From the NCBI GenBank assembly GCA_965220085.1, contig CBDCOZ010000003.1, positions 1,248,001 to 1,312,000 on the forward strand: a stretch of 64,000 nucleotides of DNA, given 5' to 3'. The DNA comes from Candidatus Oxydemutatoraceae bacterium. Its GTDB lineage: Bacteria > Pseudomonadota > Gammaproteobacteria > Poriferisulfidales > Oxydemutatoraceae. Made by a program: the position numbers and the translations under genes. The notes under the pieces are model-generated. The model saw only the letters and a list, made by a program, of their open reading frames with translations, made no database searches and was not told where the DNA came from. The number at the start of each line of letters is the position of its first letter. The stretch's first letter is position 1. Of the stretch, positions 14,198 to 57,898 are shown piece after piece.

Positions 14198-15817
14198 ATG
14201 AAAAAAGAAATTTATAATACTACCCCCCCCCATGTAAATAGAAATAGGGGGATTGCGGGTACTTGGCTCTATGGCCTCGTCGCCCTCTTCCTGCCGCCAT
14301 CCCATATAGACTCGCCATACACCGCACAGTTGCGCTACCCGATTTCGCCCGGGCTTTCGCTGTGGTTGCGGCTTGTGGCGCTGTTCGCACCCGCACGGGC
14401 GGCGGTGCATGGCATCGGCTGGGCCGCCATGCATTGTCTGCTGACCCTGTGCCTGGCATTGGGCGCGAACTGGGCGAATGCCCAAGCTCAGGACAGCAGA
14501 ATTGATGTCCCTGTTGGCAACGATATGCATATATTCGATGCAACAGACTTCGGAGCCAGACTCGGTAACAGTGTAACCTTCATCTCCCGCCCCACTTATG
14601 GCAGACTGATTGATCTCTCTGACAATAACATGGTGGAAATCAGAGGAGATGTGCTTGCTGGCGAGCCTGGAGATGTTTTCTTCGCCCACGAACTCAACGG
14701 CGAGAATGATGGCAGCGGCGCCGCATACACACTCCCGGCCGATGCCATCTCTGTCGCCAACGGTTATGACAGTTTTGCTTTCTCGATAGAGGCCGGGGGT
14801 GTCAGTACCGAGGCCATCATGACTATCAATCTGGTGGGAGCGTCCACGCAGATGGCCGCCAGCGGTGCGCCCACTGTTGCGGCCGCCATGGGCCACACCG
14901 CCTATAACGTCGGTGTGCCGCTGACTGCTTCCATCACAGGTGTGACTGAGCTCAACGGCATCAATGTGGAAACTCTGGCATGGAAGTGGCAACAGGCCGA
15001 TGCCCCCGCCAGTGGTGCTCCCATGGCCAGTGCCTACAGCGATATAGCGGGAGCCACTGCCACGGGCGCAGCTTCCTCAGACTTCACACCGCTTGTCGCC
15101 CATGCTGGAAAGTACATACGGGTCTGTGCCGCATTCATGGATCAGTTTTCCACTCCGGCGGCCTCAGGAGATCTGTGCAGCACCGGCAGCCAGGTGACCA
15201 ATGCGCCATTCTTTGGCGATGCATCGGTGGATGATCAAGTCTGGGTGACCGGCACCGCCATAGCCGCCCTGGTTCTGCCTGAGGCCATGTTTGGCAATGG
15301 CACATTGACTTACAGCCTGATCCCCACAAGCCTGCCCACCGGCCTCTCCTTTGATGCAGTCACCCGCACTATCAGCGGCACCCCGACGGCGACAACTTCA
15401 CAGCCGTCCTCATATGTTTGGTCTGTTGCCGATGACGACGGCGATACAACCACGCTGCTCTTCGATATAGAAATCAGTGCCGATGCAAAACCGGCCTTTG
15501 CCACCGAGGCGGCCATCGCCGACCAGACCTGGATTACCGGCACCGCCATAACCGACCTGGTGTTGCCTGCGGCCACCGGCGGCAATGGTGCGCTGACCTA
15601 TACCCTGACCCCGGCACTGCCCGCGGGCCTGAGCCTTGATGTCGCCACCCGCACCATCAGCGGCACACCCACGGCGGCGGCGCAGAGCAACTATACATGG
15701 ACAGCGGCGGATGCCGACAACAACACTGCAAGCAGCGATACGACCAGCCTGACTTTCAGCGTCATCTCAAATATACGCTTGCGCCTGCGCCTCTTTCTTG
15801 AGGGGCCGCTACGATAG
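14198..15817 (+). CDS. Secreted Ig-like (He_PIG-type) repeat protein, LEGPLR-tail family; C9 tract in frame
   Basis: YNTTPP start, extended signal ending ANAQAQ, two LPxGLSxDxxTRTISGTPT repeats, C-terminus IRLRLRLFLEGPLR. Confidence 0.88.
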   Translation: MKKEIYNTTPPHVNRNRGIAGTWLYGLVALFLPPSHIDSPYTAQLRYPISPGLSLWLRLVALFAPARAAVHGIGWAAMHCLLTLCLALGANWANAQAQDSRIDVPVGNDMHIFDATDFGARLGNSVTFISRPTYGRLIDLSDNNMVEIRGDVLAGEPGDVFFAHELNGENDGSGAAYTLPADAISVANGYDSFAFSIEAGGVSTEAIMTINLVGASTQMAASGAPTVAAAMGHTAYNVGVPLTASITGVTELNGINVETLAWKWQQADAPASGAPMASAYSDIAGATATGAASSDFTPLVAHAGKYIRVCAAFMDQFSTPAASGDLCSTGSQVTNAPFFGDASVDDQVWVTGTAIAALVLPEAMFGNGTLTYSLIPTSLPTGLSFDAVTRTISGTPTATTSQPSSYVWSVADDDGDTTTLLFDIEISADAKPAFATEAAIADQTWITGTAITDLVLPAATGGNGALTYTLTPALPAGLSLDVATRTISGTPTAAAQSNYTWTAADADNNTASSDTTSLTFSVISNIRLRLRLFLEGPLR

Positions 15818-28696: not shown

Positions 28697-30031
28697 CTAC
28701 CGCAACGGGCCTTCCAGGAAGAGCCGCAACCGCAAGCTCAGGCCCATCAGGTTTATCGTCAGGGTGGCATCCTCTCTGGCCTGATTGGTGCTGACATTGA
28801 TGGTCTCGCAAAGGAACCCGCCGGCATCGAGTCTGCATAGTCTTGTTGAGGCGCTGCTGGCGCCGGTGTCCAGCACTCTATATGCGAGGGTTGCGTAACC
28901 CGCTGTGCCGGCGGCGGCATCGGCTTCCGGATAGTATGCCAGAGCATCCAGCTGGGCCAGTGTCAACTCGGTGTCGGCGGCTATGGTGACACTGGCATCG
29001 CCCACTACCAGCAGGGTGCCCCGTTCGGGCGGGGTGATTATGCGGATGCCATTGATGGTGTCGCCGTCCTCATCCTCAAAGGGGAAGTTGCCCCGCACAA
29101 AGCGGTGCGGATTGGCGGAGCTGGCAGTGCTCGCTACCCAGACGGCGCTGTCGCCGCCCACGGGCCAGTCGCTCACGGCTGTTATTCGGCTGCTTGCGGA
29201 GCACAACGGCCCCTCGCTACCGGAGGGAGAATGCAAGTCCATGAAACTGACACAGACGCGAATGTACTGGCCCACCTGCTCCTGCATGGGCTGGTAGAAC
29301 TGGGTGGTCTCACCGCTGATGGCGGCGTAGGCGCCGGTCTCGGTGGCGGACTGTTCCCATTGCCATTTCAGGGTCTCGCTGTCTATGCCGTTGAGGTCAC
29401 TAACATTGCCAAGTGCGGTCTGGAGCGGCGTATCCTCGCTGTATGTGGTACCGCTGGCACCGGTGTCCAGGGTGCCCACTCTGGGCGCGCCAGTTGCGGA
29501 AACCTGCGCGGATGCGCGCAGGCTGATGGTGATGGTGCCGTTGTTGGCCGAGGATTCGCCGGCGGTCGTGACGCTGAATGTGAAGGAGGTGTATCCGGCC
29601 TGCGCACTCTGCCCCGCTTCCGGATAATAAGTGATGGTGCCGATGCTGGCGGTTGCCACAGTCTCATTCACAGTGGCGGCGGAGCTGCCCACCCTCAGTG
29701 TGCCGAGGGATGGCAGGCTCTTTATCGTGATGCTGTCCAGGTCATCATCATCGTCCACTTCCGTAAAAGGGAAGTCGTCCTCCTCAAAGGTGTACGGGCT
29801 GTTGGCGGTGGCATTGTGCAATACCCAGATGGTTTTGTGGTTGGCAGATGGCTTGGCTTGAGCGGCCGAGACAGCCGGGTCCGCATCGTTGTGCGGTTGC
29901 GCCTGCGCCTGTGCGCAGATAACAAACAGGGCTGGCAGAACCAGCGACCAGAGGCTAAACCGAGTTAGTCTTGCCCGCTGATGCGGGGGGGGGGGGGGGG
30001 GGGGGGTAGTATTATAAGTTTTTTGCTTCAT
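28697..30031 (-). CDS. Secreted beta-rich (Ig/cadherin-like) protein, LEGPLR-tail family; C22 tract in frame
   Basis: MKQKTYNTTPPPPPPPH, signal ending AQAQAQ, two FP(F)xxxDxDxxxxIxI repeats, module shared with the 14198 gene (WxWxQ...YIRVCxxFMD), C-terminus LRLRLFLEGPLR; AAGGAG upstream. Confidence 0.88.
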   Translation of the reverse strand: MKQKTYNTTPPPPPPPHQRARLTRFSLWSLVLPALFVICAQAQAQPHNDADPAVSAAQAKPSANHKTIWVLHNATANSPYTFEEDDFPFTEVDDDDDLDSITIKSLPSLGTLRVGSSAATVNETVATASIGTITYYPEAGQSAQAGYTSFTFSVTTAGESSANNGTITISLRASAQVSATGAPRVGTLDTGASGTTYSEDTPLQTALGNVSDLNGIDSETLKWQWEQSATETGAYAAISGETTQFYQPMQEQVGQYIRVCVSFMDLHSPSGSEGPLCSASSRITAVSDWPVGGDSAVWVASTASSANPHRFVRGNFPFEDEDGDTINGIRIITPPERGTLLVVGDASVTIAADTELTLAQLDALAYYPEADAAAGTAGYATLAYRVLDTGASSASTRLCRLDAGGFLCETINVSTNQAREDATLTINLMGLSLRLRLFLEGPLR

Positions 30032-45539: not shown

Positions 45540-48142
<2,603 letters not shown>

Positions 48143-48405
48143 ACCGGGTAAATGTCTAATCGATAAAAGGCCATTTTAACAAACTTATGACCTCGTACTA
48201 ACTATTAACTTTCTTTGCGGCGACTATCACCCTCCCCTCGGCAAGGGGTCAAGCGGGCTTTGCTCTGCCGGTAAGGGGGAATATTCCGTATGTATAATGC
48301 AGGTATGGCAGGCGACGCAAGCCCCTTTGCCGGTAAGGGAGTTGTAATAAAATCTTCCGTATGTATAATATGGGCTTCTGCAAAATTTTAATAGAGGTTT
48401 GCGAT

Positions 48406-49179
48406 ATGATTTATAACATGACTCCTAACTCTTTCGTTTGTGTGCGCACGATTCAAACTTTCTGCGGAAAGTTAAAGACCTTCGCCGCGTCTTTTAACGC
48501 CACACAACGCCGCGCAGGTGCCTTAACGCAAGTTTCTAATACCCCCCCCCCCCCCCCCCCCCCCCCCTATCCCACTCTCTCTTTAATATTTAGCAAGGTT
48601 TTCGCGGCGATGATTGTCGCTGCATCCGTTTGCTTTGCGAACAACGCACAGGCACAATCCTGTGCGGCGGACGAATTCCGTGACGGAAACGAGTGCGTGA
48701 AAACTTGTCCGACGGGAAAAGTGACGTCGGAGCGCAGATGCGTGACGCCGAAAGAAAAATGCACGGAGATGGGTTGGGAAGCCGTTGATTTCAACAACAG
48801 TTGCGTGGTGGGTGTTTGGAACGTCGAAGGCCGCGACACCGATGCCGGATGCGCCTATGTCTCTGGCGGCCAATGCTACGATGCCTTCGGCCCCAACTTG
48901 GAGTTTCCGCAAAGGCCGGCAGACGGAAGCTCCCCGCGTTATCTTTACAACTGTGACCCGGACGGAACGCGCGGTTTGATTCCGGCAACCATCAACACTA
49001 TCGGCTTAACCGAGAGTCGGGAATGCGAATGCGCGCTTTCATCACATACCCGACAAGGTGCTTTTAGCATTGCTGATGATGTCACCGTTGACGGATACTC
49101 TCCCCTCGTCGGCGGCCAATGCGTCTTTCTGGGATTACGGATGCGCCTGCGTCTCTTCCTGGAAGGGCCGTTGCGGTAG
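48406..49179 (+). CDS. Cys-rich secreted protein, LEGPLR-tail family; C26 tract in frame
   Basis: GAGG-n8-ATG at 48406, conserved leader, poly-Pro, signal ending NNAQAQ, CPTGK furin-like Cys repeat, LRMRLRLFLEGPLR. Confidence 0.85.
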   Translation: MIYNMTPNSFVCVRTIQTFCGKLKTFAASFNATQRRAGALTQVSNTPPPPPPPPYPTLSLIFSKVFAAMIVAASVCFANNAQAQSCAADEFRDGNECVKTCPTGKVTSERRCVTPKEKCTEMGWEAVDFNNSCVVGVWNVEGRDTDAGCAYVSGGQCYDAFGPNLEFPQRPADGSSPRYLYNCDPDGTRGLIPATINTIGLTESRECECALSSHTRQGAFSIADDVTVDGYSPLVGGQCVFLGLRMRLRLFLEGPLR

Positions 49180-49576
49180 CCATCAGCCCATGCCCGAATA
49201 CTCTCTGCTCGCACGGTCTGTTTGCAAGTAAGCGGCGACCTCGCCGCACACGAACTGCGCTGGGACGCGCCGGTCACATCGCACCGGTGCCTGATACTCC
49301 TCCCCTTTGCAGGGGGTCGGCGAGCTTTGCGACGTCGGCGAGGGAGAGCAAAATCTTCCGTATATATAGTGTAGGTATGGCAGGCGACGCAAGCCCCGCC
49401 GGCAAGGGGTTGCAATAAAATCTTCCGTATGTATAATGTCGGTCTCATGCGAGACATTCTGCATATATGATGTAGGCTCTGACATATTTTATATGTATAA
49501 TGTGCTCCCATGCGGGACTTTAAATGTACACAAATAACACTCCGTTATTTGTGGATTGTTAATGGAGGTCTGTGAT

Positions 49577-49768
49577 ATGATTTGCAACATGACTCGGAAT
49601 TCTTTTATTTGCGCGGGCGCGATTCAAACCTTCTGCGGAGGGTTGAAACCCCTCGTCGCATCTTTTAACGCCGCACAGTGCCATACAGGCGCCTTAACAC
49701 CCGTTTATATTACCCCCTCCCCCCCCCCCCCCCCCCCCCCCCCCTGTCCACTCTCTCTCAATGTTTAA
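49577..49768 (+). other. Conserved leader ORF of the next gene, out of frame at the poly-C tract (C5-T-C26, 49713-49744)
   Basis: GGAGG SD; MICNMTRNSFICAGAIQTFC...GALTPVYIT homologous to the N-terminus of the 48406 gene; loss of one C fuses it to 49761. Confidence 0.75.
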
Positions 49769-51860
49769 CAAGGTTTTTGCGGCGATGGCGGTTGCCGCAG
49801 CCGCTCTCTTTGCGGATGTCGCCAGCGCACAGACCGCACCTTCCCACGCCCCTGTCATCACCCGACCCGTCATCGCCGACTTTACCGCCGAAACCTTCAC
49901 CTTCTTCTGGGGACCCCCGGCACAAAATACCGGCGCCCCCATCACCGGATACCGCATCTTCCGCGAGCAAACCGCCGGAAAACAGCCCACCGCGCACCCT
50001 ACCGTCTGCGACTCCGCTAACTTCTCTGTCTCCTTGGAAAATCACGCCTTCACCCTCTCCGATCAAAGCGAGTGGTTCCGGCACACCGCCCACCCCCTCG
50101 GAAACCCTCCGACCGTCGCCGTCGGTTCCACACACGGAAATTGTTACCGATGGAAAATTGCCGCCGTCAACGAACACGGAACCGGACCCGCCGCAACCAC
50201 CGCGCCCATTCTTGCGCGCGGATTCGTAGTGACAGTGGACGGGAAAAAAATCGTGCGCGCCTACGACACCACCAGAACCGCAGGCAACGCGAGAGTGCCG
50301 TGCGCCGACGGAGAATACGGTGTCTACGGCTACAAGGGCAACTGGGGCGTCGGGTGCGCCCCTCCGGAAAAATTGGGACAAGCGGAGACCTGCCATGCGC
50401 TGCGAGACCGCAACCCTTCCCTCGCCTCCGCCCATCGCGGGACTTTCTGCGGCATAGAAGACCTCCCCGCCAGCAGCACGATATGCTCAGACTTGGAATT
50501 TACCGACTTGGGAGAGGTGCCTTTTTGGAAGATGGGCGTGTTGGGAACTTTGGAACGCTGCCAGATTGACAACCCCTGCGGCGGAACCTTTTCCGAATAC
50601 AACACAGACTACCGCGAATGCCTCTGCACAGGATGGGCGACGCCCAAAGCCTCTGGCAGCGGATGCGAATGCAACACCGCCGGCGCGGACAGCAACTGCG
50701 AATGTCCCGGCATCGTTGGAAGGATATACTTGGCCGAAAGCAACGCTTGCGGATGTGCGACCGGAGAGGAAGTCGTTTCCGAACTCGGCGCTTGCTACGC
50801 CGTTTGCGAGGAAGGGGAAACGCGATTCACGAATACGGATCTTGGCACCACCGCCTGCATGACCCCCGACTCTATTTGCGCCACGCAGGGCTGGGCTTAC
50901 GACTCCGCAACCGGCAAATGCCAAGTCCCTGTCACTTCCGCCGGAACCGACTATGACGGATGTTTTGTTTCCGGCGCAAGCGCTCCTCAGTGCGACGATG
51001 TCTTCGGCGAATCCTTTGCCTTCCCCGCGTCTTCCACAGTGGTGTGGACCCTTTACAACGCCTTTGACTCCCGAGCCTCCAACACCAATCCTGCCGTCGC
51101 CACCGCCATGGGCCTTTACCGCGACGCCGTCGTCGCGCGGCACAACGGCGACCCGGACTATCTCTCCGGCCCCATCGGCAATCTCGGCGACCACGGCTCG
51201 GTCACAAACCGATTCATCGCCCAACACACGCAAGACGCTTTCGCCGCCGCCGGCATCACTTTTGACGAGGGTGCTAATAACCTTGCGAATGAAATCAGAG
51301 CCGCCTTTTCACAAATCCCCATCCCCACTCCTTTCGTTTTCAACTGCGGCGAAGGCGCAACCCCCGCAACCGCAAACACCATCGGCGCCACCCAATGCCA
51401 ATGCGGCGGCGCGAAGCCGGTACTTTCCGGCGGCGTTTGTGTTGCGCAATGTCCGCAGGGGGAGCTGGCGGACGCGGGCGTTTGCCGAACCTCCTGCTCG
51501 ACGGGGAGTTTTCCGCTGGACGGGGCCTGCGTTTCGCCGGCGGAAAAATGCGAAGGAAGAGGATGGAGCGCAAGCACGGAAAGCGGAGTATACGGGTGTG
51601 CGATCAACTTTCGCGATGCGGCGGATGCGGCGGGCGCGCAAGGCAGTCATTGCGGCTTTGCGCTCTGCGATGATTATTTTGGTCCTGATTTGGAGTTTCC
51701 GCAACGGCCGGCGGACGGCAGCAATCCGGTTTATATTTACAACTGCGATCCGGACGGAACCACCGGGCTGGTTCCCGTCTTCGCCGACGGTTCCACGGAA
51801 TGCAGGCGCCGAAGCCTGCTCCTGCGCTTGCGCCTCTTCCTGGAAGGCCCGTTGCGGTAG
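49761..51860 (+). CDS. Fn3 + Cys-rich secreted protein, LEGPLR-tail family (leader frameshifted)
   Basis: Signal FNKVFAAM..ASAQ; Fn3-like WGPPAQNTGAPITGYRI...AAVNEHGTGP; many Cys repeats; LRLRLFLEGPLR. Confidence 0.87.
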   Translation: MFNKVFAAMAVAAAALFADVASAQTAPSHAPVITRPVIADFTAETFTFFWGPPAQNTGAPITGYRIFREQTAGKQPTAHPTVCDSANFSVSLENHAFTLSDQSEWFRHTAHPLGNPPTVAVGSTHGNCYRWKIAAVNEHGTGPAATTAPILARGFVVTVDGKKIVRAYDTTRTAGNARVPCADGEYGVYGYKGNWGVGCAPPEKLGQAETCHALRDRNPSLASAHRGTFCGIEDLPASSTICSDLEFTDLGEVPFWKMGVLGTLERCQIDNPCGGTFSEYNTDYRECLCTGWATPKASGSGCECNTAGADSNCECPGIVGRIYLAESNACGCATGEEVVSELGACYAVCEEGETRFTNTDLGTTACMTPDSICATQGWAYDSATGKCQVPVTSAGTDYDGCFVSGASAPQCDDVFGESFAFPASSTVVWTLYNAFDSRASNTNPAVATAMGLYRDAVVARHNGDPDYLSGPIGNLGDHGSVTNRFIAQHTQDAFAAAGITFDEGANNLANEIRAAFSQIPIPTPFVFNCGEGATPATANTIGATQCQCGGAKPVLSGGVCVAQCPQGELADAGVCRTSCSTGSFPLDGACVSPAEKCEGRGWSASTESGVYGCAINFRDAADAAGAQGSHCGFALCDDYFGPDLEFPQRPADGSNPVYIYNCDPDGTTGLVPVFADGSTECRRRSLLLRLRLFLEGPLR

Positions 51861-52149
51861 CATCAACCCGCGCGGCGAATGCTCTCGCGCAATCTGTTTG
51901 CAAGCGAGCGGCGAGATCGCCGTACGCGAACTGCGCTGGGACGCGCCGGCCGCATCGCACCGGAGCCCGTTGCGGTAGCCGCCAACCCATGCCCGAATAC
52001 TCTCGCACAGCCTATATACTCCTCCCCTTTGCAGGGGGTCGGCGAGCTTTGCGACGTCGGCGAGGAGGAGCGAATCATGCCGGAAACATTCCGGCATAGC
52101 AATGGAGCCGGGACGACAAGGACATGCTCGCTCCCATCGCAATGCCGGA

Positions 52150-52334
52150 CACTCATTCCGTGATTTCGCGCCCCGACAGGAGCATGCGAGCAACGCCTTG
52201 CAGATCTGCGCATGCTTCGCCGATGGCCATGGCAACGCAGAGCGCAGTTGCGCCGCTATGCCGGTTGTCAGGCCCGCCGTGCGGGGTACCTGCGCTTGCA
52301 GCTGCGCCTCTTCCTTGAATGGCCGTTGCGATAG
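52150..52334 (+). pseudogene. Decayed LEGPLR-family 3' remnant
   Basis: 52290-52334 reads LRLQLRLFLEWPLR*; upstream Cys-containing text is in another frame. Confidence 0.65.
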
Positions 52335-52386
52335 TGCGAACAATCCCCTCGCGGCAGAGTCGGCGCAAACAAGATACGGCACAGGC

Positions 52387-52857
52387 CTAAACGGAGAGCG
52401 CAACAAATATAGCTAGCGTCGTAACAATAAGAGCCGCTAACCCAAGGGAGACCATCACGAACAGATTTGTGATTTTGGCTATTTGCTCATCTATGTGTTT
52501 TTGGGTTTTTGCCCCGGACTCGGCTATCATCACTTTCAACTCAGCTACTGCTACTTGCAACTTAGTTACTACTGCTTTCATCTCATCTGTGTCTTTTTGG
52601 GCTTCCGACCTATGCTTGGCAAATTCCGCTCTGATCACTGACTCAAACTCGGCAATTTTTTCTCTAATCTCTGATTCAAACTCGGCAAATTCGCCTTTCG
52701 TTGCCAGAGCGCTCAGGTATTTGTGCAACAGCGCGGATAGCTCGCTGGCAATCGCGCGCGCTTTCTCTTTGTCAAAGCCTGCGTCGGTCAAGTTCTCGAC
52801 GGAGCCATAAGCAGCAACCGCTGCATCTTCCGCTTTTAAGTCTTTTGGTTTCTTCAT
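52387..52857 (-). CDS. CCDC90/DUF1640-like coiled-coil protein with C-terminal TM helix
   Basis: LTDAGFDKEKARAI, LATKGEF, heptad repeats, hydrophobic C-terminus; GGAGGG SD. Confidence 0.75.
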   Translation of the reverse strand: MKKPKDLKAEDAAVAAYGSVENLTDAGFDKEKARAIASELSALLHKYLSALATKGEFAEFESEIREKIAEFESVIRAEFAKHRSEAQKDTDEMKAVVTKLQVAVAELKVMIAESGAKTQKHIDEQIAKITNLFVMVSLGLAALIVTTLAIFVALSV

Positions 52858-53177
52858 GATTATTCCCTCCGGGTTGTAATAATAATACTAATTAAGAGGT
52901 TATGGTCAACAACCTTCGTGCCGGATAATAGCGCTCATTTGGGCGGCCATGCTCAACTCATAGACAGGCGGTTTCAATTGTCTGACGAACGGTCTGTTAC
53001 ATCGATTCCCGGCGTGATTTTTCCGCACAAAGAAGCGTTCAAAAAACGTTTTGTGCGAGCGCTGTCATGATGCTCCCATCGCAGGAGTCGCAGAGTCCGA
53101 GCACAAACGAAGGACGATGCGGTGTTCGTGCTTGCACTCACTACCGCAAAACTTTCTGCCGTACTCGTGAGGCGCGC

Positions 53178-53365
53178 ATGATGCCGGAAACATTTTAGAT
53201 TGCCGGCATCAACACAAGTTGTCATGAATGATGCCGGAAACATTTTAGATTGCCGACATCAACACAAGTCGTCATGAATGATGCCGGAAACATTTTGGAT
53301 TGCCGACATCAGCACAAGCCGTCATGAATGATGCCGGAAAGATTTTGGATTGCTGACATCAACAC
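53178..53365. repeat. 50-bp tandem repeat x4 with internal hairpin
   Basis: atgatgccggaaacatttt(a/g)gattgccg(g/a)catcaacacaag at 53178, 53228, 53278, 53328. Confidence 0.9.
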
Positions 53366-53394
53366 GGGTTGCTACAATATCACATCGGCCACGG

Positions 53395-53705
53395 CGCACC
53401 GACAACGGCTCAGAGCTCTGCGACACATTTGATCGCTACTCGCAACGAGGTATCCGCCGCTGCTACACGTATCCCAATGTCCGAAGATGAATACATTCAA
53501 TGAACACTTTCACCGGCGCTTCGGGAAAGGTTTGCGGGGTTTGAAGAGGGTTTGTTGCCGACCGACATGCGGACATTCAATGAGCGTCGGATAAAGTATC
53601 TGCTATGGTTTAATATACCTAACGGTCACACTATGGACTGGAACTTCAAGCGCCTACGACACCCATAATATTTGCCCAAAGTTTCCAATATGTCATGGCA
53701 TCATA
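53395..53705 (+). pseudogene. Degraded IS481-like DDE transposase fragment
   Basis: TDNGSE, Y..CPKMN..NE, KYLLWFN motifs across frameshifts; homologous to 12195-12430. Confidence 0.65.
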
Positions 53706-53890
53706 CTGGCATCATACAGGGGGTTGTAATAAAATTTTCCGTATGTATAATGTCGGTCTCATGCGAGGCATTCTGCGTATATAATGTAGGCTCTGACATA
53801 TTTTATATGTATAATGTGCTCCCATGCGGGACTTTAAATGTACACAAATAACACTCCGTTATTTGTGGATTGTTAATAGAGGTTTGTGAT

Positions 53891-54067
53891 ATGATTTATA
53901 ACATGACTCCTAATTCTTTCGTTTGCGTACGCACGATTCAAACCTTCTGTGCAAGGTTCAAAACCTGCGCTGCGTTCTTTAAGGCCGCACAATACCGCGC
54001 AGGCGCATTGATGCTTGTTTATAATACCCCCCCCCCCCCCCATGTCCCCTCGCCTCTCAATGTTTAA
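53891..54067 (+). other. Conserved leader ORF, out of frame at C15 (54027-54041)
   Basis: GAGG SD; MIYNMTPNSFVCVRTIQTFC identical to the 48406 N-terminus; loss of one C fuses it to the downstream ORF. Confidence 0.75.
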
Positions 54068-55709
54068 CAAGGTTTTCGCGGCGATGGCACTCGCTTGCGC
54101 TCTCTTTACAAACAACGCACAAGCGCAAACTTGTGCGGCGGACGAATTCAGCAACGGGAACGACTGTGTGAAGACCTGCCCGGCAGGGAAAGTGACCCTG
54201 GATCGCAAATGCGTGACACCAGCGGAGAAATGCACGGAAAGGGGATGGAGCAAACCCGCCAACGGCAATGTCTGCCATTTTGGAAACAGCGGGCCCATGG
54301 GCGGCTTCTACGAACTTGCCGATATTGCAGGCATCGCGAACATAAACCGCGACGCCCTTTGCAACCTGGGGTCCGGCTCGAGTGAGTTTCCGGAATGCGC
54401 GACGGTTTTCGGCCCGAACTATGAATTCCCGCAAATCCCGGACCCGCATTCGCGGAGGACCTATATCTACAACTGCGACCCCTCCGGGACGCGCGGCCTG
54501 ATGCCGGCGACCTACAACGTCAACGGCGCGACGAACTGCACTTGCGCCGAGCCCTCCAAGGTTCGGCGCGGCGCCACTTCCCGCGTGATCAACGGCGCTA
54601 CGGTGATGCTTGGCGGACAATGCGAATGCCCGGAGGGGATGGTGGAGAATGACAACGGCATGTGCATCCCCCGCCCGGCAAACGCGCCCTCCCACGCCCC
54701 CTCCGTCACCCGACCCGTCGCCGCCGACTTTGTCGCCGAAACCTTCACTCTGTTCTGGCGGCCGCCGGCACAAAACACCGGCGCACCCATCACCGGATAC
54801 CGCATCTTCCGCGAGCAAAACGCCAAAACACAGCCCACGGCGCACCCCACCGTCTGCAACTCCGCCAACTTCTCCGTCTCCCTGGAAGATCACGCCTTTA
54901 CCCTCACCGACCCAAGCGAGTGGTTCCAGCACACCGTCCACCCGCTCGGAAATCCCCCGACCGCCGCCCCCGGTTCCACACACGGAAAGTGCTACCGATG
55001 GCAAATCGCCGCTGTCAACCAACACGGAACCGGACCCACCACCGCCACCGTCCCGATTCTTTCGCGCGGATTCGTCGTGACAGAGGACGGAGAACAAGTC
55101 GTGCGCGCCTACGATACCACGCGCACCGACAACTCCGAGGAGGGAGGCGGAGCAAGAGTGCCGTGTCCGACGGGAGAATACGGCGTCTACGGCTACAAGG
55201 GCGACTGGGGCGTTGGGTGCGCTCCGCCGCAAAGCTTGGGGCAGGCGGAAACCTGCCATGCGCTGCGAGACCGCAACCCTGCTCTCGCCTCCGCCCACCG
55301 CGAAACCTTCTGTGGCATAGAGGATATGCCCGCCAGCAGCACGATATGCGCGGACTTGGGATTCACCGACTTGGGGGAGGTGGAGTTTTACAAAAACAAC
55401 GAATTGGGGTCGCTGGAGCGTTGCGAGATTGCCGACCCGTGTAGCGGAACCTTTTCCGAATACAACGCAGACCACCGCGAATGCCTCTGCGCAGGATGGG
55501 CGACGCCCAAAGCCTCCGGCAACGGATGCGAATGTACCACCGCCGGCGCGGACGACAACTGCGAATGCCCGGGCCCCGTAGGAGCGACATACCTGGTCGC
55601 AAGCAACGCTTGCGGATGTCCGGAAGGACAGGAAATCGTTTCCGGCGCATGCGTTCCCCAAGGTCTGCGGTTGCGCTTGCGCCTCTTTTTGGAAGGGCCG
55701 TTGCGGTAG
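54060..55709 (+). CDS. Cys-rich + Fn3 secreted protein, LEGPLR-tail family (leader frameshifted)
   Basis: Signal ending NNAQAQ; N-terminal module like 48406, C-terminal module like the N-terminal half of 49761; LRLRLRLFLEGPLR. Confidence 0.87.
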   Translation: MFNKVFAAMALACALFTNNAQAQTCAADEFSNGNDCVKTCPAGKVTLDRKCVTPAEKCTERGWSKPANGNVCHFGNSGPMGGFYELADIAGIANINRDALCNLGSGSSEFPECATVFGPNYEFPQIPDPHSRRTYIYNCDPSGTRGLMPATYNVNGATNCTCAEPSKVRRGATSRVINGATVMLGGQCECPEGMVENDNGMCIPRPANAPSHAPSVTRPVAADFVAETFTLFWRPPAQNTGAPITGYRIFREQNAKTQPTAHPTVCNSANFSVSLEDHAFTLTDPSEWFQHTVHPLGNPPTAAPGSTHGKCYRWQIAAVNQHGTGPTTATVPILSRGFVVTEDGEQVVRAYDTTRTDNSEEGGGARVPCPTGEYGVYGYKGDWGVGCAPPQSLGQAETCHALRDRNPALASAHRETFCGIEDMPASSTICADLGFTDLGEVEFYKNNELGSLERCEIADPCSGTFSEYNADHRECLCAGWATPKASGNGCECTTAGADDNCECPGPVGATYLVASNACGCPEGQEIVSGACVPQGLRLRLRLFLEGPLR

Positions 55710-55955
55710 CATCAACCCGCGCCCCGAATGCGTATGCAATCCGGGTTCGCACTTTAGCGACTGACCGAACTCGCTCCGGGCCCGCGGTTGCGGTTGCGCT
55801 TGCGCCTCTTTTTGGAAGGGCCGTTGCGGTAGCATCAACCCGCGCCCCGAATGCGTATGCAATCCGGGTTCGCACTTTAGCGACTGACCGAACTCGCTCC
55901 GGGCCCGCGGTTGCGGTTGCGCCTCTTCCTGGAAGGGCCGTTGCGGTAGCATCAA
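55667..55955 (+). repeat. Tandem repeats (123 and 117 bp spacing) giving three successive LEGPLR-stop tails
   Basis: Stops at 55709, 55832, 55949; identical intervening sequence. Confidence 0.9.
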
Positions 55956-55985
55956 TCTATGCCGAATGCTCTCGCGCAGTCTGTT

Positions 55986-56480
55986 ACTCCTCTCCTTGCG
56001 AGGTCGGCGTGACAATTCCGTCAATCGTATCCGCCGACTTGTATGACTCCTCCCTTGCGAAGGTCGGCGTGACAATTCCGTCAATCGTATCCGCCGACTT
56101 GCATTGCTTCTCTCCTTGTGAAGGTCGGCGTGACAATTCTGTCAATCGTATCCGCCAACTTGCATTGCTTCTCTCTTTGCGAAGGTCGGCGTGATAATTC
56201 CGTCAACCGTATCCGCCAACTTGCATTGCTTCTCTCTTTGCGAAGGTCGGCGTGATAATTCCGTCAACCGTATCCGCCGACTCGCATGACTTCTCTCTTT
56301 GCGAAGGTCGGCGTGATAATTCCGTCAACCGTATCCGCCGACTCGCATGACTTCTCTCTTTGCGAAGGTCGGCGTGATAATTCCGTCAACCGTATCCGCC
56401 GACTCGCATGACTTCTCTCCTTGCGAAGGTCGGCGTGACAATTCCGTCAATCGTATCCACCGACTTGCATTGCTTTTCCC
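55986..56480. repeat. 60-61 bp tandem repeat x8 with internal hairpin
   Basis: ggtcggcgtga(t/c)aattccgtcaa(c/t)cgtatccgccgac core at 56002, 56062, 56123, 56184, 56245, 56306, 56367, 56428. Confidence 0.93.
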
Positions 56481-56699
56481 TTGGCAGGAGGTAGCGAGCT
56501 TTGCTACGTCGGCGAGAGGAACGGTAGCAAAATATTTTGTATGTATAATGTGGGTACGGCAGGCGGCGCAAGTCCTTTGCCGGCAAGGGAGTTGTAATAG
56601 AATCTTCCGCATGTATAATGTAGACCCCATGCGAGACATTTATATAGAGAAGGTCTATGGGGACATTTAATAGATTTGCGATATGAGGAAATTTGTGAT

Positions 56700-56879
56700 A
56701 TGGTTCATAACATGACTTTTAACATGACTGCTAATTCTTTCATCTGCGCGGGCGCGGTTCAAACCTTCTGCGGAAGGCTAAAAACTTGCGCCGCGCTTTT
56801 TAACGCCGCGCAGTGTCGAACAGGAGCGTTAACGCACGTTTATAGTACCCCCCCCCCCCCCCCCCCCCTCGCCTCTTAA
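56700..56879 (+). other. Conserved leader ORF, out of frame at C21 (56848-56868)
   Basis: MVHNMTFNMTANSFICAGAVQTFC...GALTHVYST; +1 or -2 C fuses it to the downstream frame. Confidence 0.75.
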
Positions 56880-57898
56880 TATTTAGCAGGGTTTGCGCGG
56901 CGATAACGCTCGCTTGCGCCCTCTTTGCGAACAACGCACAAGCGCATCCCGACACTTGCGACGAAGGCGAAGCCGCCGTTGTCGGAACAACCTTTTGCGT
57001 CGATTCCGCCCGGCTGGAATTTCTTGACTGGTGCGAGACACAAAACGGCACACGCACTGCATCCTCATTTGATGTCGGCGAATGGTTTTGCACTCTTCCC
57101 CTAGGGGAGCGCACGACGGTGTGCGGCGTGTTCCGGGATGCGGGGGCTGACGCAACCAACTCTTTTTGCGAGAGCACTCCGATTGCCGGACAGTCAAGGG
57201 CAACCCAATGCTCCGCCGCAAAGCCATACTCCGCCGAGTTTCATATGTGCGCGTGTCCGCCGGGGCAGGCCGAGTCCGACGGCGCTTGCGCGCCGTGTCC
57301 GACCGGAAAACTGGAGTCCGAGCGCGCCTGTGTCGACTCTTGTCCGACCGGGAAATTGGCATCCGACAACATTTGCGTTTCGCAATGCCCGCCGGACAGG
57401 GTTGAAGCCGACGGCGTCTGCGTTGCCTGTTCGGCAGAGCAGAAAGTGTCCGACGGCGTTTGCGTTTCGGAATGTCCGCAGGGGCGGCTGACGGACGGGC
57501 GCGTTTGCCGAACCGCCTGCCTGACGGGGAAAGTCCCGCTGGATGGGGTCTGCGTTTCGCCGCAGGAAAAGTGCGAAGGGAGAGGATGGACTGCATACGA
57601 GGTACTCGGAGTACCCACCTGCGAAATTAGGTATCGCGATGCGGCGGATGCGGCGGGTGTGCCGGCCACTGTCTGCCACCTTTCGCTCTGCAACATTCAC
57701 TTCGGCCCTGATTTGGAATTTCCGCAAAGGCCGGCGGACGGCAGCAGTCCGGTTTATGTTTACAACTGCGACCCGGACGGAACCACCGGGCTGGTTCCCG
57801 CGACTTTCGCCGATGGTTCCACGGAATGCGCTCGCCAAGAGGCGCACCGGCGCTTACAACTGCGCTTGCGCCTCTTTCTGGAAGGGCCGTTGCGGTAA
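56870..57898 (+). CDS. Furin-like Cys-repeat secreted protein, LEGPLR-tail family (no start of its own before the signal peptide; ORF track start 57119)
   Basis: Frame reads RLLIFSRVCAAITLACALFANNAQAHPD... through CPTGK repeats to LQLRLRLFLEGPLR. Confidence 0.82.
   Translation, partial: RLLIFSRVCAAITLACALFANNAQAHPDTCDEGEAAVVGTTFCVDSARLEFLDWCETQNGTRTASSFDVGEWFCTLPLGERTTVCGVFRDAGADATNSFCESTPIAGQSRATQCSAAKPYSAEFHMCACPPGQAESDGACAPCPTGKLESERACVDSCPTGKLASDNICVSQCPPDRVEADGVCVACSAEQKVSDGVCVSECPQGRLTDGRVCRTACLTGKVPLDGVCVSPQEKCEGRGWTAYEVLGVPTCEIRYRDAADAAGVPATVCHLSLCNIHFGPDLEFPQRPADGSSPVYVYNCDPDGTTGLVPATFADGSTECARQEAHRRLQLRLRLFLEGPLR

Follow-up and report, generated by a model that had tools for sequence, protein, structure and literature searches.

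A C tract read as poly-proline between a conserved leader and the signal peptide: a probable translational frame switch in a gene family of an uncultured gammaproteobacterium

Contingency loci with G/C homopolymers in or before surface-protein genes occur many to a small genome in Campylobacter, Helicobacter and Bordetella, and PilC of Neisseria has a poly-G in its signal-peptide region. For Neisseria Opa, CTCTT repeats in the coding sequence of the leader peptide set the reading frame (PMC3745409), and in the pil1 locus of Streptococcus gallolyticus GCAGA repeats in a leader peptide set the expression of a surface structure stochastically (PMC3894217). Here we describe a related arrangement in a Candidatus Oxydemutatoraceae bacterium, in which a conserved leader, a long C tract read as poly-proline and a signal-peptide-like sequence follow one another in four genes (genes 1 to 4). 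These genes lie in a stretch of 64,000 nucleotides (nt), called the window, which corresponds to positions 1,248,001-1,312,000 of contig CBDCOZ010000003.1 on the forward strand, and all coordinates are window positions unless a contig is named. The genome has a size of 2.49 Mb and 56% G+C, and genome-wide counts cover this one assembly.

Translation of these genes probably starts at the leader ATG, with slippage in the tract switching the frame, a reading to which we assign a probability of roughly 0.75 on the basis of sequence comparison. A first-pass annotation of this DNA had placed the true start at the leader ATG and had taken the tract for the element that sets the frame, and the open leader frame, the ratio of nonsynonymous to synonymous change (dN/dS), the promoters, the missing downstream starts, the depletion of acidic residues and a class of tract-less paralogues all argue for it. 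Each gene would be one translational unit composed of a promoter, a Shine-Dalgarno (SD) sequence, the leader ATG, a leader of 45-49 codons, a poly-proline tract, a Sec-type signal peptide, a Cys-rich secreted protein and the tail LRLRLFLEGPLR. Together, leader and poly-proline would lengthen the signal peptide at its N-terminus by a basic stretch free of acidic residues, and this extension would be cut off together with the signal peptide at the AQA-Q junction. Slipped-strand mispairing would alter the tract length, so that of every three length classes just one would bring the leader ATG into the frame of the signal peptide (ON), while in most loci the other two frames would terminate within about ten codons of the tract (OFF).

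In all four genes, GAGG or GGAGG precedes an ATG, with a spacer of 8 nt in genes 1 to 3 and 11 nt in gene 4, and a conserved frame remains open for 45-49 codons up to a C tract of 15-26 bases. The stretch after the tract is signal-peptide-like in each gene and ends in AQA or ASA (Table 1). A Sec signal peptide was defined by a basic n-region, a hydrophobic core (9 residues with a mean Kyte-Doolittle value of at least 2.0) and small residues at -3 and -1. Every coordinate of the first-pass annotation proved right when read directly in the sequence, and the shared leader peptide pattern that it had described is real, with 11 residues invariant across eight copies. By direct count, G+C is about 30% in the opening 30 nt of the leader of gene 1, against 56% for the genome. 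From the leader ATG to the AQA-Q junction of gene 1 there are 83 residues; the length of 80-90 residues proposed for an extended signal peptide is therefore right. The leaders are poor in acidic residues, as an n-region would be, while export by means of them is what we infer.

Table 1. Positions of leader, tract and associated features of the four genes in the window
Feature	Position	Strand	Remark
Gene 1 module series	48284-48370	+	TTCCGTATGTATAATG in series
Gene 1 promoter-like site, sigma-70-like, TTGTAA-16-TATAAT	48342-48369	+	36 nt before leader ATG; copy of the repeated TTCCGTATGTATAATG module
Gene 1 SD-like GAGG	48394-48397	+	8 nt before ATG 48406
Gene 1 leader	48406-48541	+	45 codons + 1 base, in frame through tract (ON, provisional)
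Gene 1 C26 tract	48542-48567	+	codes for Thr + 8 Pro
Gene 1 putative signal-peptide region	48568-48654	+	YPTLSLIFSKVFAAMIVAASVCFANNAQA; ATA replaces start ATG
Gene 1 predicted mature protein	48655-49179	+	Cys-rich; ends in LRLRLFLEGPLR
Gene 1 tail	49144-49179	+	
Gene 2 module series	49356-49502	+	TTCCGTATGTATAATG in series
Gene 2 promoter-like site	49410-49437	+	more module copies at 49356-49371 and 49487-49502
Gene 2 hairpin, 10 bp	49529-49553	+	CACAAATAAC-ACTCC-GTTATTTGTG; between promoter and SD
Gene 2 SD GGAGG	49564-49568	+	ATG 49577
Gene 2 leader	49577-49712	+	leader reading frame as assembled ends at TAA 49766-49768, overlapping signal-peptide ATG 49761
Gene 2 tract C5-T-C26	49713-49744	+	
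Gene 2 putative signal peptide and mature protein	49761-51860	+	699 residues from SD-less ATG; LEGPLR tail
Gene 2 tail	51825-51860	+	
Gene 3 promoter-like site	53724-53751	+	
Gene 3 module series	53737-53816	+	TTCCGTATGTATAATG in series
Gene 3 hairpin, 10 bp	53843-53867	+	same as in gene 2
Gene 3 SD GAGG	53879-53882	+	ATG 53891
Gene 3 leader	53891-54026	+	OFF (provisional); leader reading frame ends at TAA 54065-54067, overlapping ATG 54060
Gene 3 C15 tract	54027-54041	+	
Gene 3 putative signal peptide and mature protein	54060-55709	+	weak fn3 match; LEGPLR tail
Gene 3 tail	55674-55709	+	
Gene 4 module series	56535-56620	+	TTCCGTATGTATAATG in series
Gene 4 promoter-like site	56592-56619	+	
Gene 4 SD GAGG	56685-56688	+	ATG 56700
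Gene 4 leader	56700-56847	+	49 codons including a 12-nt in-frame duplication (FNMT); OFF (provisional), stop TAA 56877-56879
Gene 4 C21 tract	56848-56868	+	+1 or -2 nt would join leader with signal peptide
Gene 4 putative signal peptide and mature protein	56870-57898	+	signal peptide without start codon; LEGPLR tail
Gene 4 tail	57863-57898	+	

As assembled, gene 1 is provisionally ON and genes 2 to 4 are OFF, the tracts of genes 2 and 3 being one base too long for the signal-peptide frame and that of gene 4 requiring the change given in Table 1. The downstream ATGs of genes 2 and 3 at 49761 and 54060 have the pyrimidine-rich, SD-less context that had been noted for them, and genes 1 and 4 have ATA at this site. 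In gene 4, a TAG at 56843-56845 sits in the signal-peptide frame, as had been reported. Because ATG, GTG and TTG are all absent between its tract and its hydrophobic core, gene 4 needs a change in tract length.

The genome-wide search with a leader profile that the first-pass annotation had suggested was done with nhmmer, and the profile built from the four leaders found exactly eight copies in the 2.49 Mb, each with a C tract immediately downstream. Four are those of the window; h1 to h3 lie 3-9 kb before its start and k1 lies at 168 kb of contig 3. The first-pass annotation had treated the genes as an island of four; they form a sub-family within a set of 88 loci spread over the genome. The leader behaves like a module in that the signal peptides that follow its eight copies are of three different types. 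Its frame is open in 8/8 copies, with one to five stops in each of the other two frames; an SD-like motif stands 8-11 nt before the ATG in all eight, and the length differences among copies (-12, +12 and +21 nt) are multiples of three. For 39 shared codons of six representatives (15 pairs, Nei-Gojobori method), dN/dS was 0.42 in the leader frame (codon bootstrap 0.23-0.73) and 0.76 (0.45-1.30) and 0.99 (0.57-1.84) in the shifted control frames, so the synonymous bias whose absence the first-pass annotation had named as a point against its reading is present. This bias is genuine, though modest. Asp and Glu are absent from six of the eight leaders, and these six have two to six Lys/Arg residues each. 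In three copies (gene 1, h1 and h2), SD and ATG, leader, C tract and signal peptide form one frame with a long open reading frame (ORF).

The genome contains 90 C/G runs of at least 9 bases (9-28, mostly 13-28) and no A/T run of at least 11. All but two of them (88/90) lie directly 5' of an ORF of at least 150 codons, with C on the coding strand. An SD-like motif with an ATG open to the tract was found in 77 of the 88 loci, usually with the ATG 22-28 nt upstream and with the short-leader peptide consensus MNRQxFNT (DNA ...TTTTAATACTA). Over the whole set the leaders have 7-49 codons and 3-9 prolines follow them; in 32/77 the leader has at least 30 residues, and these belong to several unrelated families. 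The SD-ATG frame is open upstream of the tract for a median of 35.5 codons, compared with 7 and 1 in the other frames, and acidic residues make up 2.5% of the 1,777 residues of the 77 leaders, compared with 10.0% when this DNA is read in its other two frames. A hydrophobic core follows within 60 codons after the tract in 81/88 loci, then AQA-type sites; leader and poly-proline stand before n-regions with K/R, hydrophobic cores and AQA sites. In the OFF frames a stop appears within 10 codons in 148/176 cases (median 5), and one OFF frame is long in gene 2 (160 codons), as is one in gene 3 (42 codons). Mismatch-repair loss as the cause of the tracts was set aside because MutS is encoded and intact. 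The window has two further tract loci, C9 at 14223-14231 (+) and G22 at 29985-30006 (gene on the - strand). Several long leaders of other families (for instance G000 C1:132883, C3:582816 and C3:688433) resemble tandem duplications of the unit of SD-ATG, short leader and tract, and the decay of the first tract to ACCGCCCCCTC (...NTAPSS...) in such duplicated leaders hints at an origin of long leaders.

Starts after the tract bear directly on whether the leader could be an independent upstream ORF, its end set by the tract, which controls the downstream gene by coupling or by pil1-like attenuation while the exported protein starts at the ATG of the signal peptide itself. Genes 2 and 3 do have such an ATG, with the leader ORF stopping 5 nt after its A, and among the 20 loci with an ATG before the core an OFF-frame stop lies within -3..+8 nt of that ATG in 12, mostly as ATGA; the S. 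gallolyticus locus provides a precedent (PMC3894217). Because the leader ORF of genes 2 and 3 stops right on the SD-less ATG (ATGTTTAA), these genes may be served by termination-reinitiation. However, the 12 loci are mostly paralogues with a common GCAACGATGA by descent, and no + strand terminator-like hairpin was found between tract and signal peptide, the only + strand hairpins being upstream of the SD. ATG, GTG and TTG are absent between tract and core in six of the eight long-leader genes (1, 4, h1-h3 and k1) and in 55/81 loci (no ATG in 61/81), and since so many genes have no start after the tract, an upstream ORF cannot be the general mode. It would add at most a third state in a minority of loci, and as a general explanation we regard it as unlikely. 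A wider combination of these elements appears to us rather doubtful: a three-state gearbox working genome-wide, in which the in-frame state would give a poly-proline signal peptide of about 80 residues gated by elongation factor P (EF-P), the ATGA/ATGTTTAA frame would hand ribosomes to the native signal peptide and the third frame would be off, the 88 loci, all serving a single tail-tagged family of surface proteins, then being able to produce an enormous combinatorial surface repertoire purely at translation initiation. A dependence of the poly-proline linker on EF-P is conceivable, and efp is encoded in the genome.

The leader might alternatively be untranslated 5' DNA or RNA, a promoter or structured untranslated region (UTR) in which the tract is a promoter spacer or a UTR element, with translation from the ATGs at 49761 and 54060. 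The public record of gene 3 does begin at 54060, and a TATAAT-like hexamer adjoins the tract in genes 1 to 4. The first-pass annotation had mentioned a TATAAT just before the C run; this is exact only in gene 3, the other three window genes having TCTAAT, TATATT and TATAGT, and the four leader copies outside the window have no such hexamer at the tract. The consensus scan of the region found TTGTAA-16-TATAAT (10/12 matches, with TTGCAA in gene 2) upstream of all four leaders, but no promoter-like site, as a -35/-10 pair, ending at any tract on the + strand. A promoter at the tract was rejected on these two grounds, the missing -35/-10 pair and the missing hexamer in the four outside copies. 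Because no tract promoter is found and the hexamer is not kept, a transcription start downstream of the leader, the scenario that the first-pass annotation had itself named as contrary to its reading, is without sequence support. The module TTCCGTATGTATAATG has nine matches in the window versus 0.32 expected, all on the + strand and within about 220 nt upstream of the four leaders, where it occurs two to three times in series per gene. The hairpins listed in Table 1 have a stem of the form CACAAA(T/C)AAC-loop-GTT(A/G)TTTGTG, and in h1-h3 (L003/L004/L007) a T run follows it in the 5' UTR, which makes it terminator-like; similar hairpins stand upstream of many other tract genes. Two intergenic tandem arrays were also found, one of 61 nt x 8.0 (55986-56470) before the gene 4 promoter and one of 50 nt x 3.8 (53178-53365) before the gene 3 promoter.

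RNA structure within the leader would also suit an untranslated element. A hairpin of the form AAYYTTC-UGCG-GRRRGTT is paired in 96% of cells, with one compensatory change and with U-G pairs only in the sense orientation, and two alternative leader helices, one of them involving the SD (SD:CAAACCTT, 94%), are paired in 92-94% of cells. Covariation was not significant, however, since shuffles reached the observed paired percentage in 124/500, 208/500 and 235/500 cases for the three helices; the fold z-score of gene 1 is -1.68, and Rfam gave 0 matches at E <=1 over 48000-57600. Moreover, genes 1, 4, h1-h3 and k1 have no downstream start, and an open frame, indels in multiples of three, the dN/dS contrast and acid depletion are unexpected in non-coding DNA. 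An untranslated leader thus seems to us very unlikely, although RNA structure may exist alongside coding in the leader.

The leader genes share their other end as well. As to the suggested co-occurrence of leader and LEGPLR tail, all four window genes carry the tail, and 82/88 tract ORFs run intact to the common C-terminal tail LRLRLFLEGPLR. Since this tail ends 82 of the 88 tract genes, the N-terminal switch module and the tail mark one very large family. Genome-wide, 186 ORFs of at least 150 residues end in the tail, 83 with a 5' run of at least 9 C and 103 without. These 103 tract-less ORFs served as a control, in which the 140 nt preceding the hydrophobic core were scanned for the DNA of the short-leader motif without regard to frame. 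Eighteen tract-less paralogues have the motif, and in 18/18 the leader ATG is in frame with the core and open to it, as in MNRQIFNTAPHWRATLARLGLR; an untranslated leader would predict about one third in frame. These paralogues look like collapsed tracts locked ON. A 123-nt unit comprising the tail-coding end of gene 3 and its 3' flank is repeated 2.4 times in tandem at 55666-55955, and free-standing tail-like fragments lie near 51950-51980 and 52290-52335. The opposite strand carries a 156-residue ORF in the interval from gene 2 to gene 3 (52387-52857); it is repeat-rich and Glu/Lys/Ala-rich and has a hydrophobic C-terminus.

Among the 77 loci with an SD-ATG leader, 20 are in frame, 36 at +1 and 21 at +2. 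Because the ORFs are intact to the tail in 82/88 loci yet only 20/77 are in frame, reversible switching is favoured over decay. The +1 state, in which the tract is one base too long, is over-represented (36 vs 20 and 21), which could be due to biology, paralogy or a homopolymer bias of the assembly. The same distribution would suit a model in which DNA tract length matters little: RNA polymerase would slip on C tracts of at least 15 bases, every locus would yield mixed frames and the level of in-frame mRNA would be constantly low. Such slippage is reportedly known from work on poly(A) tracts of insect endosymbionts. That the tracts (13-28) far exceed the length needed for a DNA switch, that in-frame loci are not enriched and that all ORFs stay intact are consistent with it. 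Since this model still needs the leader ATG as the start, it modifies the reading of a leader start with a frame-setting tract and does not replace it, and as a substitute it would be extremely improbable.

Several points weigh against a leader start with tract switching. The coding signal of the long leader is modest, the variable columns by codon position being 22/17/26, and the comparison rests on eight paralogues of about five lineages. The 18/18 result, which is the strongest test, concerns short-leader families and not the long leader, and we claim no exact probability for it because the copies are paralogues and not independent. Some of the conservation of the leader could act through the RNA, given its conserved potential to form a hairpin. 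The share of in-frame loci (20/77) shows no excess over one third. Each ON or OFF call is provisional, since tract lengths were taken from one assembly and may err by a base; when X1-X3 were mapped to 48200-51800, the X1 contigs were broken at each of the two tracts and the raw Hi-C reads from X2 provided hardly any depth. Finally, we know of no tested precedent for an 83-residue signal peptide with eight prolines.

The arrangement has two features of translational phase variation, a repeat inside the ORF between the start and the functional part and paralogues in all three frame states whose ORFs are intact in 82/88 loci. As in Opa and PilC, a simple repeat separates the start codon from the signal-peptide cleavage site, the repeat number would set the frame, and a multigene surface-protein family would switch member by member. 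Unlike in those systems, the repeat consists of C alone, with 9-28 bases (mostly 13-28) that are read as poly-proline, and its place is between a separate leader of 7-49 codons and the n-region. It occurs at 88 loci in one uncultured bacterium with a genome of 2.5 Mb, and its sequences are unrelated to Opa and PilC. We consider the module a variant of Opa/PilC-type translational phase variation in a new form. A literature search, with supplementary files outside its scope, found no paper on this system. In comparison with the loci of Campylobacter, Helicobacter and Bordetella, the tracts are longer, 88/90 have one position, orientation and 5' module, and 82/88 have one C-terminal tail. As in pil1, changes in the repeat would make an upstream leader peptide differ in length or frame and in this way set the expression of a surface structure stochastically. 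The pil1 leader is a separate ORF that destabilises a terminator (PMC3894217). In the present genes the tract is not followed by a terminator, and most of them lack a separate start codon, so that the leader, unlike that of pil1, must be fused to the protein.

The first-pass annotation had also likened the leader to ESPR-type extensions. The extended signal peptide region (ESPR, Pfam PF13018) is carried by type V secreted proteins (autotransporter/TPS/TAA). The analogy holds, since both are N-terminal extensions directly before an otherwise classical Sec n-region and give an unusually long pre-sequence. Homology was rejected, as the gene 1 N-terminus, P0002, P0003 and P0005 gave no Pfam match to ESPR at E <=1. 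Unlike an ESPR, the leader is longer (45 residues plus poly-proline) and would be coupled to a frame switch, and the proteins have no beta-barrel: the domain matches examined for the four proteins were only weak furin-like and fn3 matches, with no beta-domain or beta-barrel among them.

The long leader was found in 0/40 genomes of relatives by DNA search and in 0/52 genomes of the order by profile search, and scans of genome contigs and metagenome contigs did not find it. Among 1.84 billion representative proteins, only one foreign match has the leader with seven prolines (P0005, E 3.5e-6), and none of the homologues of gene 1 (six matches) outside this genome has the leader. C runs of at least 14 bases are present in 21/40 relatives, namely in 11/18 of the same family, 10/11 of a second family and 0/11 of two small-genome families; with their presence in two families and their absence from the two that have small genomes, long C tracts thus characterise one part of the order. 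The layout from tract to signal peptide was seen in 2/11 and 3/30 foreign loci as judged by eye, and because of this rarity the uniform layout seems to be lineage-specific.

In public gene records, gene 1 (as a 257-residue protein) and the in-frame copies h1 and h2 begin at the leader ATG, which runs counter to the expectation that gene callers mis-start these genes. That expectation holds for genes 3 and 4: the gene 3 leader is recorded separately as a 58-residue ORF (P0001), and gene 4 is recorded as a 259-residue fragment from GTG 57119 without the signal peptide. The 699-residue form of gene 2 is absent from the public record.

If translation does begin at the leader ATG, in a frame set by the tract, the annotation of this genome and its kin would need correction: a usable start downstream of the tract is missing from most of the 88 genes, and gene callers would truncate genes (as with gene 4) or record small "hypothetical" leader ORFs separately (P0001 and P0004). 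To our knowledge, this would be among the largest sets of homopolymer switches, and it would lie in a small, uncultured bacterium. All switches would then control one tail-tagged family of secreted proteins with eukaryote-like Cys-rich and fn3-like parts. The natural series of signal peptides, with leaders of 7-49 residues and 3-9 prolines, could be used for probing the limits of Sec-signal extension and the effect of EF-P on export. Stochastic surface variation would then be a strategy in symbiosis, beyond pathogens.

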